A stretch of DNA of 63,002 bases, filler included. It is 14 parts of 14 records of this genome, joined end to end, with 100 filler letters (N's around TTAATTAATTAA, not from the genome) between each part and the next. Parts side by side here need not be neighbours in the genome. Positions count along the whole stretch, not along the records: positions 13,712 to 18,039 come from SRR11831586_605; 13 more parts are not named here. The stretch is one strand, 5' to 3'. The notes beneath the pieces are model-generated. The model had not been told where the DNA came from and searched no databases. It saw only the letters and a list, made by a program, of their open reading frames with translations. Both the position numbers and the translations under genes were made by a program. Shown piece after piece: positions 13,612 to 31,687 of this stretch; within the stretch, counting starts at the first letter, position 1; every line of letters begins with the position of its first letter.

Positions 13612-13756
13612 NNNNNNNNNNNNNNNNNNNNNNNNNNNNNNNNNNNNNNNNNNNNTTAATTAATTAANNNNNNNNNNNNNNNNNNNNNNNNNNNNNNNNN
13701 NNNNNNNNNNNTGTGTATGTGTGTGTGTATGCGTGTGTATGCTCCGGCTTACGAAC

Positions 13757-16700
13757 CTGACAGCGAGCACACGCCCAAGCACGCACAGGCTGCGGCCTGC
13801 ACCATTTCCGAGCGTGACTGAAGGAGACCCACTAGGGGACGCACACCGCTCAGCTTGGCCACCTCCACACGAGTCGCTTCATCTACGTCACAGATGTCAG
13901 AAACGAGAATACGAATCTGACCATATGCTACTGTTTTGTAAACGCACAGCACACGCACATTTACACGTATGTGTTACCAACATAGAAATATGCATGATAA
14001 ACCCGCAAGCACAATACATTCAGTACGCCGCAAAGGGGCGTTGTAAGTGCGTTACCTTTATCCGCACAGTGCTGGAGCGCCTGCAAGGCAGACTTGCGCG
14101 TAGAGTCACTCGCCCGTGAGAGAAGGGAGATCAGTCGCTTGAGACCACCCAATGTGCGAATCTCAATCTTGTTCTTTTCTGCGCACCACCACAACCACAA
14201 CGCATGTACATCACACCACCACTCAATGAGAGACAGACATAATACAGTAGTCACATTCTTAACCAATCACCAAGCACTGACAACCAAACAACAGAAATAT
14301 ACATCATCAACAAAACAAGGGACTGGACATATCGCAAAGCACTACAACACACACTCACCAACACCACCACCACCGACACCACCACAACATACCTTCCAGG
14401 GCCAGATTTGCCACAGCCATGCAGGCATACTCCACAACTTCGTCTGTGTTGGACCCCAGTAGGTTGAGCAGCGCACGCACACCACCCAGTTTACGCACTT
14501 CGACTTTGGTGGCCGCTGGTGGGATCGCACACATTAGATGAGCAGATGAAGGTAAAGAGAGGACAAGCACATGAATGTGGGTTATTGGGACGAGTACAAG
14601 AGCGGCGCGCAACCAGGCAAAACACCATCATCTCAAAACAGAGCGCAAACTGTACACAAAAGTGACTGCATAAAGCGCATACCGCTCGAGCAGCAGTTCG
14701 CGATGACCATGCAGCTAAACTTTTGCACATCCGTGGTGTGTGCGGTCAGCAGCGGGACCATGGATTTCATCGCACCGCATTTACGAACCGACTCCGCGGC
14801 GGCTTCATTCGCACCTATTATTTAACGGAGAGAAAAGTGTGCGAGAAACGCACAAACCCAGAGAGTAAGCAAAGCTTCTGAACAAACACATCCGTTTCAT
14901 AAAACAACCGCCCCAGAGATTCGTTACCCACACACCAACATCGGTCCCCTGCCAAGTTGAGACCAGCGCATACAACACACGCACACACACACACAAACAT
15001 CGCGTACCAGAGATGTTCCCCAGCGCAAGACACACGGGCTCCCACAGCTGCTCGTCCCCACCTGACAGCAGCGAGAGGAGCTGCGGCACAGCGCCGTGCT
15101 GAATCGCAGCCACCGCACAGTCCTCTGCAATACACGCACACACATACACACACAGAACACACAACGAGGGTGAGCAAGAGGCGAAGAAGAACGCAATGTG
15201 CTACTAACCCCAATCAAAACATACACAGATTGTAGCGGTTGCAATGGTACGAACTGCGATTCAGTAAAACAGACGGACATACACACGGATACGCAATCCT
15301 ACACCCGGTATCATGGCACACACCGTCATAACAACAGTTCCCGATGGCCAGCGCGACCGCCATCAACACATCTGGGGCTTTGGTGACATGCAATAAGTTT
15401 GTCAGCACATCCATGCCACCCGTGCTGAGAACATGCGCGCCAGCACCCTCTGTGCGACACGGGTCAGTATACGCACATACAAATACACAAATACATACAC
15501 ACATACTAGACTGCGATTAATCACCTTACCTGCATGGAGCACAGACACACACACACACGACACATGCATACACCCTCTCACACATGATCATCAATAACGC
15601 AGAAGCTGCGTACATGCCTGAATGTGCGATGCTCGCAAGAGCCAGCGTGGCGGCACGAATCGTGGCGCTGTCATCCGTGCGGCCCAACAATTGCACTAGC
15701 GCCACACTCCCAGTCTCCGCCGCAGCTCGCTTGCACTCATCATCTGGCACGCGACATGTCAGAGAAGCAAGGGACCCCGAGAACGGTCAATACCCACATT
15801 GGCCACTCAACAAAACACAAGGTACCCAGAGAGAACCCCCTTTGAGATCTTACGGGCCTCGTACCATCGTATACCGCTGTCATGACCGCCACGGCCACAT
15901 TTCTTGCAACAGCGGCATCCCCCGAGCTCAGCTGACCGATCAAAGCCGGCAGAATGCCCTTTGCAATCAATTCCGGCCTCACCGCAGGATCTGCATGATT
16001 CGAAGAAAAATATGAACACGAAAACCGTAATTAGTGTTACCGGCATATATCAAGCAGCAAACGCTAAGGCGAATCAGAAGGCCAGCGCCCCAACATACAC
16101 CGGTTCTTGTCAGCGTACATGATTCGATAATGGACGAGACCAAGAGGGCTGCACTTGAGACCACCTCCACATCCTCCGCGTTCAGCAGCTCCACCAGCCG
16201 AACCAGCCCGCCCAACGCACAGAATTTCTCGGAACAATCCGCTACCGCAAGAAAATCAGACCCCAAGGACTGCATAATGTGGTCTACTCCACTACACTAA
16301 AACGTACTGTAGGTGCACACGGTCGTTAAGAGGGAGAGAGCGCTGAAGGCGGCCCCGTTCGGACCCAGCAGTGAGAACAGATGCACCATCGCATCCGACT
16401 GTGAGACCTCGGGCCAGCCTTGCTTGTCCGCTGTAAAATTATTGACGCGGGTTTAGATCAGTGATTGATGTGCGGGAGAACCACAAAACAAAAATTGTAG
16501 AAGGTTGATAGGGGAAGGACATGACTGAGTGAAACACATACGATGTAAAGGCAACATGCATTCTAATTATCAACAACACAAGCACGCACACACACGTACG
16601 CAAGCAGCACGAGATGTATGCCTGCAAGCACGCCGATCTCGCCTCGTTGTCTTCCACGGACTCGCTTGCGCTCAGGGCCGTCTTCAGCACGTTATGGCGC

Positions 16701-17861
16701 CCACGCAGCTCCGCATGCACAGATTCTAAACGCACGAACGGTTTTTGCGATGTGAGACACAGAGTGACTGTTTACGAAGCCAACTACACATACGGTCAAA
16801 AAAAGAGGGCGCTAGCAGTACAACAAAAAAACAAGAAAAACGGAGCACTAGCAGGACATCATCATCTTCCTTGTAACAAACGTACCGTGCTGCGCGCTTG
16901 CGTCGATGCACTGCGCCGCCAATGTGACAAAGGCCGCGTTCTTGGAGGACAGCAGACCCACAATGGTTTTCAATCCGCCCACCTTGGCCACTTCTTCGGC
17001 ACACTCCGCTACACCAACAAAACGAAACATCAAATTCACGGAAACAACCTGTTACTCACACTAACTAAAAAAGTGCATGGTAACCGAGTCTAACGAAGCA
17101 TCCAGCCACAGCGCAGCGTCCCACACCCAACAATTTTGATGCCACGGACGGCTCCCCACAGGACATGAACGGAGTGCTCGGCTGGCAGCACATACCTTCA
17201 CGACAGCAGAACGTGAGCGCCCACAGAGCCCAGTTCACGACCTCCGGATTCTTGTGTGTGAGGAGTGTATTCAGGGCACGTACACCACCCGCCTTGCGAA
17301 TGTCCACAGCTACATCATCTACAAAACAAAGGGAAACACAAACGTATCAGTGCGATGTACTCGCGGGTTTGGTTCATACTCCCCTCCCCGATGCGATAGA
17401 AACGCCGCACAGGCAAACCAGCGGCTACTAAACGGCTGTACGCGAACGCCACACTCGCAGATGATGGCGTACCGACAGCAGCACAAAAACCGAGAAGGAT
17501 GGAAGAATTGACCAGCAGTTCGGCAGAGGCGCTCTCGATCATGTACTGCACAACGGAGCGCACACCGCCGCACCGCCTCACCTCCAGTACGTTTTTGACA
17601 TCCGCTGCAGTGCAATAACTGTTAGTACATGCTCCTCCACACAGTGTAACGCATATGTGTACACTGTGATTCGCAAGGTTAGATGTGTTGAGTGGATCAC
17701 TCACATTCAAAACTGGCGTCCAAATGAATTACCTTCCGCGCAGCAACGCCCCATGGCCCATATGGCCGCGTTCTTGGTGTCCATCGACAGGTCCGTACTG
17801 CCGAGCGCATTGATCAGACGTTCGACCACTCGGAATCGCACCGAGTCCGCTCGCATGGCTC
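13757..17861 (-). CDS. Eukaryotic armadillo-repeat protein, internal fragment of 15 exons (626 codons). Exons 5'->3': 17861-17733, 17604-17473, 17318-17196, 17008-16886, 16725-16600, 16430-16308, 16241-16119, 15990-15865, 15743-15618, 15449-15324, 15124-15008, 14814-14683, 14515-14393, 14178-14056, 13882-13757
   Basis: Each exon has an AG acceptor and a GT donor (one GC). The spliced frame is stop-free with ARM motifs such as IRKAGGVRALNTLL, VRKLGGVRALLNLLGS...ACMAVANLA and IRTLGGLKRLISLL. Confidence 0.85.
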
Positions 17862-17870
17862 CTGCGCGAA

Positions 17871-17891
17871 GAGAGAGAGAGAGAGAGAGAG
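17871..17891 (-). repeat. (TC)n microsatellite (minus strand) forming the polypyrimidine tract of the first ARM exon in the contig
   Basis: gagagagaga run on +, next to the acceptor at 17862-17863. Confidence 0.8.
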
Positions 17892-18139
17892 TTATCGGTC
17901 AGCACGCTACCGATACAGAACATTCGCATGCAACACACAGCTCCACAACGTGTTGCTTTCACATATCCCCTCTCAACCCCTCCCCCCCCCAACGAAACAC
18001 AATTACGACCCCACTCTGACAAAGTCCTAAGGCTGTGCGNNNNNNNNNNNNNNNNNNNNNNNNNNNNNNNNNNNNNNNNNNNNTTAATTAATTAANNNNN
18101 NNNNNNNNNNNNNNNNNNNNNNNNNNNNNNNNNNNNNNN

Positions 18140-29298: not shown

Positions 29299-31687
29299 GT
29301 GTGGGGCCCGTACACACATTGTCGTCCGCGTTACCGGCGCTGATGGCTGTGCTGCGCTGTGGCAGGGCGCAGTCGCAGGTGGACATCGCTGCGCTCTGTG
29401 GCACTTCGAGCGTGGTGCGCTGGGGCGTGGTTGCCCTGGCCCTGCTGCACGCGGACGACGAGTGTCGGATGGCAGCGATCGAAATGCTGTCTGTTGTGGG
29501 ACGCAAAACTCCCGTACGCAGACTGTGCTCGGATCAGTGTGTCGATGTTGTAGTGCATCCAGGGTGTTGGGTGTTGATTGTTGAATTCGCTACACAACTT
29601 TCGCGTGGGCTGCAGTGTTGAGATCCATGACTTATATGTTCACTGGACGCTTGGAGCAGGTCTCCGCGGACGAAGTCTTGTGCGTGCGGCTGTTCCTTGC
29701 GTTCAACATGAAGATCTCCAGCGTACGCTGTCGTGCGCGCACCACGGCGGCGCTGGCCAGGTTCATGGAGCGGCTGGGCGCGTCCTCCGTGTCCCCGTCG
29801 GAGCCGTGCGCACCGCTCATCTTTGAGGACGACTCCCTTCCCCGCGCTCTGCGTTCTGCGCTTCTCGACACGTGCGGCCCGCTCCTGCAGCCGTCCGCCT
29901 CTTTCGCGGAGACCCTGCATCAGCACATTCTGGCGGGTCTGTTTCCTGGGGCCGGTTTCCAGCGCCGTCTGCAGGCGCTGCAGCTCATCACGCCGTCGAT
30001 CGCGCGTGATCTGGCCGCATCCCTCACTCCGATGCTGATCAACGTGTTCACTGATTCGTATGACAACAATCGGTACGGCTCGTGGTCCTCGCACGGTATT
30101 TTCGGGGTTCCAATACCCGTTTGGATCGCCGCCTTTTCACTCTGGCCCTTTGTGTAGGGATATCGCATATCAGCTCCTGATGACGCTGCCCTGTCCGCTG
30201 CCGCAGCTTGCGTCGGCAGATGCGGTGCAGGCGCTTATGCAGTGGTCCCTGGACATGATGATGCGTCCTTATCTCCGCGAGCGAGACGGGGCTGCCCTGG
30301 TTCTGCGACTTGTGTGTGCCAAGTATGCGTGCACGCTCATGTGGCGCATTGATGTGGACCCGGTCACCCGGCGCTGCACTGTGCACGCGGAGGAGCATGT
30401 GCGGTGGTCCTCGCCCGCTCAAGGTGCGCGCTGCATCCTCGCCTGTCTCGGTGGTGTCGGTTGCGTCGTGTGCGAAGTGTTTGGCCCATCCTTAGAGTGG
30501 CACTCTGCGGACTGCTAGTGTGTACAGATGTGCACTGACGCTGGCGAGTATGTGTTTATTGTGTACACGTGTTCCGTGAGCGCTATTAACCATCTTCTTC
30601 GTGTTCTCTTCCAGCCCTTCTGCACTTCCTCTCCCAGCTGAGCGGCTTGGTACAGGCGCAGTTTGATAGCAAGGTACCCCGTCCTCGCACATCCGTGTGT
30701 TTCTCACATTGCATAGGCTGCGAACCTTGGCCTTGTGCACGGACTTCTCCTCGGGGTGCGCCTGATTCTGTCAGATGTTGATTTTGACGACGCACGCGTC
30801 ATCGAGAACGCCACTGATTGGCAATCCGTAATCTCTGCGGTACGTGGTGTGGCTGCGACGCCGTTGTTCTATTAACGATTGGATTATCCTCGTGCAGCTT
30901 CTGGTGCATATCCATGACACAGCGCGTGTCGCCCTCAAGCGATTCGCTCAGTCAGGTCCGGGCGGCACCCCGGTGCCTCACACGGACGGATTCTAGTACG
31001 CGCCGCCTGTCGCACGCAGTGAGTGTTATTGATCGTGGCGTCTTATATATCGTTAGCGCTGCGGACTCGGATGCAGTGGAGGACGTTCCGTTGCTTTCTA
31101 TGGCGGCGGATGTAATAGGTGCAGGGTATGTGCGGCTGTGCATGTTTGTGCGTGTGCGACGGTTTTGGTCTTGTATTCTGTGATCGTGTGACGGTATCTG
31201 TGTTGATAATTGGCCAGGTTCGCGGACCCGCGTGTATACTTTCGTGTGCAAGCGTGGCTAGCAATCAAGGAAGCATCGCTGTTGTGTGGTGCGCTATTCA
31301 ACCAGGTGCCTCTCACGGGCAAGGTACGTTGTGCCCACACGCGCCACACAGAATACTGTTACACTGCGGTACTCATTCGCGCACTGCAGCCTACCGATTT
31401 GGTGACCGTCGAGCAGGCAAGAAGAGCCGGTGATTTGCTGATTCGCGTGATGCTGTCGACTGGACACACCGGCGTCATCGAGAAGACTCATGCTGGCCTT
31501 ATTTTGCTTTGCCGTCGGCTTCTGCGCTCGGTGTGTGTGGAACTGCGAGCGCTGCCTTCGCTTTGGCTTCATGTACGTCTTCGATTCGGTCCCTTTTGGT
31601 TGCGGCTCACATGACGCTTCAGGCGTTGTTGGATATCACTGCCTCAGGGATGAGCACAACCGTGCTTCGGCGCAGTGCAGGTCTTCC
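29299..31687 (+). CDS. Eukaryotic THADA/Trm732 (DUF2428) homologue, internal fragment; exons 29299-29513, 29660-30072, 30158-30423, 30615-30673, 30717-30839, 30898-30995, 31057-31125, 31218-31323, 31390-31572, 31623-31687
   Basis: Nine GT..AG introns give a continuous frame with THADA-like motifs DSYDNNRDIAYQLL, RERDGAALVLRL, VHGLLLGVR, AWLAIKEASLL, STGHTGVIE and the hallmark LRRSAGL(P). Confidence 0.8.

Follow-up and report, generated by a model that had tools for sequence, protein, structure and literature searches.

A one-repeat-per-exon armadillo gene fragment, probably part of a conserved giant gene of about 37 repeats fixed after old exon duplications

Street et al. reportedly described in 2006 a class of repeat genes that are built of whole-repeat exons. 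In the excerpted text of two other papers such genes are treated as a described class and laid to local intron-exon duplication (PMC4585158; PMC3995336), and a passage of a third reports that in some repeat families the linkers show an enrichment of exon junctions (PMC1553488). For the armadillo (ARM) repeat, the accessible part of PMC3995336 counts the arrays of human proteins among the most configuration-stable ones, with the unit configuration kept. The ROCO LRR and NB-ARC-TPR genes of the brown alga Ectocarpus also have one frame-preserving exon per repeat, and the hallmarks of their exon shuffling, according to an extract of PMC3341825, are surplus or inverted copies of repeat exons within introns and exons of equal length. 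A description of a strict one-ARM-per-exon gene was not found in a literature search that excluded Street 2006 and Paladin 2020, which may cover ARM. Here we analyse a gene of this kind in a 63,002-nucleotide stretch of DNA (the window), in which fifteen minus-strand exons on one eukaryotic contig (13712-18039) each encode one ARM unit. It resembles the whole-repeat-exon class in that each exon is one repeat unit and that intron position and phase are constant. With a probability of roughly 0.78 we regard it as a frozen, old product of exon duplication and as part of a conserved giant ARM gene of about 37 repeats.

The window consists of 14 short contigs placed end to end with N-TTAATTAATTAA-N linkers between them, most of which are E. 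coli-like. Three contigs are eukaryotic (1-2086, 13712-18039, and 29299-31687) and contain CA/TG runs and spliceosomal-type introns. This mixture would fit a protist that was co-assembled with its food bacterium. The ARM gene occupies the second of these contigs, and its source is an intron-rich eukaryote.

A sequence-only reading of the window had listed fifteen exons, all of them multiples of three nucleotides (3n) and all beginning and ending in phase 1. Their number, lengths (Table 1), and phases were reproduced exactly on the minus strand, and the spliced product comprises 625 codons without a stop. The 14 introns are 66-214 nucleotides (nt) long; 13 are of the GT-AG type and one, intron 9, is GC-AG. 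None of the 14 can be read through, as ten contain an in-frame stop and the remaining four have lengths that are not multiples of three, and the G+C content is 59.5% in the exons versus 46.7% in the introns. Placed by the Pfam Arm matches, all 14 introns lie in phase 1 at the loop between helix 3 of one repeat and helix 1 of the next, and none lies inside a repeat. The exon junctions are predictions from DNA. As a control all sites within 40 nt were ranked with leave-one-out splice matrices, in which the phase-1 donor was top-ranked for 10 of the 15 exons and the phase-1 acceptor for 11 of the 15. A phase-2 GT donor 4 nt past exon 9 was rejected because it disrupts both the frame and the alignment to the orthologue described below. 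Intron 9 itself (15450-15617) starts with its GC donor at 15617, with this rival GT four bases downstream, and carries near 15530 a CAG-GTAAG motif that is acceptor-like and then donor-like at once and is possibly a recursive or cryptic splice site.

The uniform phase seems to be a property of the ARM gene in particular, because the THADA/TRM732-like gene on another eukaryotic contig, which was used as a control, has mixed phases. Its seven hand-proposed introns have the phases 0,2,1,0,0 and 0,0, meaning that one of seven is in phase 1. This comparison assumes that both contigs derive from one organism, and the set of introns leaves one stretch of the control gene unplaced.

The encoded product belongs to the armadillo repeat proteins. 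Pfam Arm (PF00514), the comparison that the sequence-only reading had itself proposed, matches 11 of the 15 exons at E<=0.1 and six of the 15 over the gathering score, with no match for exons 2, 5, 6, and 12. Hidden Markov models (HMMs) built with one repeat left out recovered 13 of the 15 held-out exons and missed exons 5 and 6. The repeat exons are not chance matches, because the held-out exons score 6.0-46.6 bits and the best ARM HMM score in the non-exon sequence of the contig, taken in all six frames, is only 3.8 bits. The proposal of one ARM unit per exon, cut at the helix-3/helix-1 loop, is thereby borne out. The same holds for the claimed high divergence among the repeats, whose pairwise identity averages 24% and does not exceed 45%.

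The strongest evidence comes from an orthologue in Gefionella okellyi, which is reported to be a malawimonad. The 15 repeats were combined into a profile and compared with 1.84 billion representatives, which gave 5,847 matches at E 0.001. The spliced product was then searched by local BLASTP, first against the best 150 of these 5,847 matches and then against all 341 proteins fetched. The Gefionella isoforms score 278-280 bits over residues 1-622 (278 for the EukProt protein P0003), and the next best of the 341 proteins scores 119 bits. The Gefionella entries (EukProt EP00698 P011892-P011895; here P0153, P0154, and P0003) are unannotated, and their function is not described in the source record. 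The four accessions correspond to three distinct isoform proteins of 1,388-1,580 amino acids (aa), all derived from transcripts only. Residues 1-622 of the window product align to Gefionella residues 676-1301 with 32% identity and 4% gaps, and the absence of gaps across all 14 predicted junctions supports these junctions indirectly.

Not only the repeats but also their order is shared. The exon order was shuffled 100 times and the local alignment scores were compared: the real order scores 808 against P0154, the shuffled orders score 363±37 with a maximum of 463, and thus none of the 100 reaches the real score. Applied with 30 shuffles each to the 338 proteins of at least 300 aa, the same test gives z values of 11.7-12.8 for the Gefionella isoforms and of at most 4.06 for all others. 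In a 15x15 matrix of single repeats the collinear partner ranks first in 11 of the 15 rows, and the optimal assignment pairs every one of the 15 repeats with its collinear partner. Orthologous repeat lengths agree within 0-3 aa, and even the atypical exons 5 and 6 match Gefionella best at the expected position.

Other proteins do not reproduce the order. For P0013 and P0006, 45 and 21 of 100 shuffles, respectively, score at or above the real order, and P0127 (4 of 100) was not accepted as collinear either. None of 100 shuffles reached the real order for P0002 (3,810 aa), but its z of 3.7 lies in the background tail beside importin-alpha proteins and it was rejected. P0002 is an all-ARM protein with 42 profile matches, encoded in one open frame on a metagenomic contig of ~17 kb. 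Further giant ARM proteins of 2,000-5,500 aa are present among the best 150 of the 5,847 profile matches. In P0001 (3,211 aa), degenerate kinase-like blocks alternate with long near-identical ARM runs, followed by a RING-like Cys/His end (by eye); the ARM array appears to have expanded recently. A search of the ESM Atlas gave generic ARM clusters only, among them, as a candidate lead, a cluster of 1,493 aa with 57 members. Word-indexed protein searches with three Gefionella regions (~8,000, 8,000, and 6,200 candidates) yielded no further orthologue, these searches being insensitive as they also missed the fragment P0018 described below.

The longest Gefionella isoform, P0154, has 1,580 aa. Within residues 35-1560 the HMM detects 32 repeats, and a degenerate stretch at ~410-590 brings the number to ~37 by length. 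Its Pfam content is restricted to ARM/HEAT-type families, with an Arm score of 241 bits, and no catalytic, accessory or signalling Pfam domain was found in P0154. About 16 repeats precede and six follow the part that matches the window. The window gene is accordingly placed, by homology, in the middle (approximately repeats 17-31) of a gene predicted to encode ~37 repeats and ~1,550-1,600 aa, nearly all of it ARM. The sequence-only reading had treated the exons as a gene; its one-repeat-per-exon layout is real, but the exons, judged by an orthologue that continues on both sides, are an internal fragment of a longer gene. A complete gene running from an ATG at 17856-17854 to the TAA at 13751-13749, which a read-through of exon 15 meets two codons on, was rejected because the orthologue extends beyond both ends, and is also contradicted by the metagenomic protein P0141, which diverges at the same donor position at the end of exon 15.

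The register of the introns seems to recur outside the window. Here the comparison uses homologue proteins and not genomic DNA; scans of metagenome DNA with two alignments gave 60 and 241 pattern matches and 0 confirmed loci. The Gefionella isoform P0153 ends with D-G-T-stop where P0154 has D-D-E, and P0003 ends with N-G-V plus five residues where P0154 has N-E-G. Both breaks are at a repeat end. The change from Asp or Glu to Gly, located at the first codon that differs, points to a retained phase-1 GT intron, as phase 0 would lead to Val and phase 2 would leave the residue the same or nearly so, and Gefionella would have phase-1 introns at two repeat boundaries. P0141 is a 191-aa metagenomic read-through that matches exons 13-15 (44% including the insertions, 73% on exon 15). 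It contains two 19-aa insertions exactly at the junctions 13/14 and 14/15, which start with Gly and fit a phase-1 acceptor at their end; a phase-0 acceptor fits inside neither of them. P0018, a read-through of 217 aa that is 54% identical to the Gefionella N-terminus, carries one such insertion, of 16 aa, following repeat 1. These proteins suggest that other lineages, too, carry phase-1 introns at the same boundary between repeats. The one-repeat-per-exon layout would then be old, yet not strict in every lineage of the family.

Structural data are available from a single-sequence model of the orthologous Gefionella stretch, which is predicted to be all-helical with ARM-like spacing (pLDDT 64.1, pTM 0.51). 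The stacking of three-helix ARM units is seen on this model only, and the top Foldseek matches are ARM proteins: ODAD2 (also named ARMC4) with a TMq of 0.43, beta-catenin with 0.41, and Vac8 with up to 0.51. Repeats 10-13 of both the window gene and the Gefionella protein have an Asn in helix 3, forming a ladder of four. Four residues before this Asn position there is a helix-3 column that is identical in 7 of the 15 orthologous pairs, compared to 1.3 expected from non-orthologous ones. In importin-alpha, Trp and Asn positions form the groove for an extended peptide. By analogy the Asn ladder of exons 10-13 is the clearest candidate site and would hold an extended peptide as well.

The likeness to Gefionella thus extends to all 15 collinear repeats with their lengths, the Asn ladder, and two probable phase-1 boundaries, and is best accounted for by the following history. 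The array would have grown as one intron-exon module, with its cut in the loop that links helix 3 to the following helix 1, was duplicated in tandem again and again. These duplications would predate the split of the source organism from Gefionella, and repeat number and order would have been frozen since that split, presumably because every repeat acquired a packing and binding role of its own. Most of the mRNA would be a single constitutive isoform. The sequence-only reading had left it open whether the gene is a modular binding scaffold diversified by exon skipping or shuffling, or a fixed, old exon-duplication product. The first is not supported, given that the order of all 15 repeats is conserved in Gefionella, and the second is favoured by the one-to-one collinear orthologue and the lack of spare repeat exons. 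Collinear one-to-one orthologues had been named in advance, together with a single constitutive isoform, as what would refute diversification; what was found is one full-length orthologue with 15 of 15 repeats in order.

Several observations weigh against this history or qualify the exon model. Five donors (exons 7, 8, 9, 14, and 15) and four acceptors (exons 5, 9, 12, and 13) are not ranked first, and for exons 9 and 15 the phase-1 donor is outscored by a phase-2 GT 4 bases downstream. The contig contains no partner for exon 1's acceptor or exon 15's donor. Because the Gefionella segments of the 15x15 matrix were taken from the collinear alignment, the matrix is biased towards the diagonal, and the shuffle test is the independent control. 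A single full-length orthologue was found, and "frozen" consequently refers to one pair and two fragments. The shared introns are deduced from homologue proteins alone, and P0018 has no insertion at the junctions 2/3 and 3/4 and seems to stop inside helix 1 of repeat 5. The model of the Gefionella stretch is middling (pLDDT 64), the fold search does not separate ODAD2, beta-catenin, and Vac8 (0.41-0.51), and the comparison of helix-3 columns spans ~40 columns and is uncorrected.

Among the alternatives, the one that survives best accepts that the gene is fixed but supposes that splicing skips its symmetric exons, either under regulation or stochastically, which would create isoforms differing in length or binding surface as known for exon 5 of NLRP3. 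Any such skip preserves the frame because all exons are 3n and of phase 1-1. There are also weak splice sites (the GC donor of intron 9, the donor of exon 14, and the acceptors 5, 9, 12, and 13), and the skipping of LRR exons has a precedent in NLRP3, as reported in an excerpt of PMC6642158. However, none of the three Gefionella isoform proteins is missing an internal repeat, and they differ by intron-retention-type ends only. Isoform evidence of this kind says little about skipping, since assemblers drop minor isoforms. In addition, the position-specific conservation of each repeat implies a fixed packing of neighbours, and we consider regular skipping to be unlikely.

It is also conceivable, though very improbable, that the gene belongs, as a divergent and expanded member, to one of the named ARM families, of which ARMC4/ODAD2, the outer dynein arm docking subunit, is the most plausible. 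Among named natural ARM proteins ODAD2 comes closest in sequence and fold, and it is likewise a long ARM solenoid. It gives the Gefionella protein its best natural PDB match, with 111.8 bits (entries 8j07_m7, 7rro_H7, and 9cpc_1A) versus 63 for Vac8 and 59 for importin-alpha, it heads the Foldseek list for the model of the Gefionella stretch, and ARMC4 is the commonest named match in two of the three word-indexed searches with Gefionella regions. However, ODAD2 is not collinear with the window gene, is shorter, and has another layout. For ARMC4 P0165, 49 of 100 shuffles equal or exceed the real order, and the N- and C-terminal blocks of the Gefionella protein give z values below 2 with seven named ARMC4 proteins. 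The best-scoring stretch of the PDB match spans only query residues 46-215/234. The Gefionella protein has 1,580 aa compared to ~1,040 aa in ARMC4, and the ARM units of P0154 cover nearly its whole length, whereas ARMC4 (see P0165) has a recognisable ARM block in its C-terminal part. The breakpoints of vertebrate ARMC4 isoforms, an indirect and noisy indicator, are mostly inside repeats.

The other identities that the sequence-only reading had put forward fit no better, each failing on collinearity, length, or a defining domain. The named ARMC3 protein P0061 contains the EDR1/CTR1/ARMC3 domain (PF14381), which in ARMC3 is C-terminal to the ARM block and is absent from P0154, and 44 of 100 shuffles score at or above its real order. 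Importin-alpha has about ten repeats. In P0154, 32 are detected and the N-terminal IBB domain (PF01749) of importin-alpha is not present; some importin-alpha proteins reach z values of 3-4 in the shuffle test, which is far under 12. Vac8 has an N-terminal acylation motif with Gly2, about 12 repeats, and ~570 aa. P0154 has a Ser at position 2 and is far longer, and Vac8 is outscored by ODAD2 as given above.

We give hardly any credence to the idea of a diversifying receptor-like family that evolves by genomic exon shuffling like the brown-algal genes. A symmetric one-repeat exon is the precondition for shuffling, and the layout is the same as in the excerpted part of PMC3341825. In contrast to the Ectocarpus genes, the window gene has no inactive or inverted repeat exons, its exons are unequal (five lengths, with the low mean identity given above), and its order is kept in an orthologue of 32% identity, P0154, that has no signalling domain. 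Neither the introns nor the opposite strand contain an ARM-like sequence above 3.8 bits, so that inverted or surplus repeat exons are absent. At the DNA level, similarity among exons or introns does not go beyond short words and TG-rich tracts, and there are no recent exon or intron duplicates. A tblastn search of the repeat exons against the rest of the window, DNA that is mostly bacterial, was blank. The window gene is therefore no evidence for a new diversity-generating system. That multiplication of the repeats within exons came first, and that the same loop position then preferentially gained or retained introns, for example at a proto-splice site, is just as improbable: the source organism is intron-rich and P0018 lacks introns at two junctions, but a single register and phase in 14 of 14 introns, with none inside a repeat, is unexpected under independent gains, the THADA/TRM732-like control has mixed phases, and there is no common proto-splice motif because the bases preceding the donors vary (AAG, TCG, ACG, TGC, ACA, CAT, ATG, CAG, CTG, GCG).

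The two other eukaryotic contigs of the window encode unrelated genes. The control gene is a THADA/TRM732-like fragment on the plus strand of 29299-31687, is intron-rich, and matches PF25150 and PF10350. The contig at 1-2086 carries the 3' portion of a GCIP/CCNDBP1-like gene (PF13324, PF20936) with a long last exon at ~1091-1806, and has an A run at its end.

Table 1. Exons of the ARM gene and their contig, in window coordinates. "Held-out HMM" refers to the leave-one-out models; Gefionella positions are residues.
Feature	Position	Strand	Length (nt)	Profile evidence	Gefionella	Remarks
Exon 1, ARM unit	17733..17861	-	129	Pfam Arm E 0.099	676-717	
Exon 2, divergent ARM unit	17473..17604	-	132	held-out HMM 6.0 bits; no Pfam match	719-760	
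Exon 3, ARM unit	17196..17318	-	123	Pfam Arm	762-801	47% identical
Exon 4, ARM unit	16886..17008	-	123	Pfam Arm	803-842	
Exon 5, atypical ARM unit	16600..16725	-	126	missed by Pfam and held-out HMM	844-884	
Exon 6, atypical ARM unit	16308..16430	-	123	missed by Pfam and held-out HMM	886-926	
Exon 7, ARM unit	16119..16241	-	123	Pfam Arm	928-967	
Exon 8, ARM unit	15865..15990	-	126	Pfam Arm	969-1009	
Exon 9, ARM unit	15618..15743	-	126	Pfam Arm	1011-1051	followed by GC-AG intron
Exon 10, ARM unit	15324..15449	-	126	Pfam Arm	1053-1092	helix-3 Asn
Exon 11, ARM unit	15008..15124	-	117	Pfam Arm	1094-1133	helix-3 Asn
Exon 12, ARM unit	14683..14814	-	132	held-out HMM 22.3 bits; no Pfam match	1135-1178	helix-3 Asn
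Exon 13, ARM unit	14393..14515	-	123	Pfam Arm	1180-1221	helix-3 Asn; P0141 match
Exon 14, ARM unit	14056..14178	-	123	Pfam Arm	1223-1262	P0141 match
Exon 15, ARM unit	13757..13882	-	126	Pfam Arm	1264-1301	P0141 match
Eukaryotic contig	13712..18039	.	4,328			E. coli-like neighbours; ARM gene exits at both ends

ARM repeats chiefly mediate protein-protein binding, as stated in the consulted section of PMC11514114, and the product of the window gene is probably a long, fixed intracellular protein-binding scaffold with position-specific surfaces. A role at the flagellum or the microtubule cytoskeleton is tentatively the likeliest setting, at somewhat less than an even chance, because ODAD2/ARMC4 is the nearest named ARM protein and Gefionella is a flagellate; nothing else speaks for it. 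A more daring proposal would be a very old, undescribed giant ARM protein of ~37 repeats that is confined to deep-branching flagellates, serves the cytoskeleton of the flagellum or the feeding groove as a long ruler or scaffold, preserves the footprint of its duplications in its introns across distant lineages of eukaryotes, and is tuned in length or binding surface by the skipping of whole-repeat exons. We regard this combination as a long shot.

The gene represents an unnamed giant ARM family within a known class of gene architecture, seen so far in one malawimonad, the source organism, and two metagenomic fragments. It offers a natural and clear-cut case of an ARM solenoid that would have grown by single-exon duplication and then been frozen. 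Because a malawimonad and two other eukaryotes seem to share the register, it may also serve as a test case for the age of repeat-boundary introns. Finally, it draws attention to a giant ARM family in poorly sampled protists, of which prokaryote-style gene callers show only fragments.

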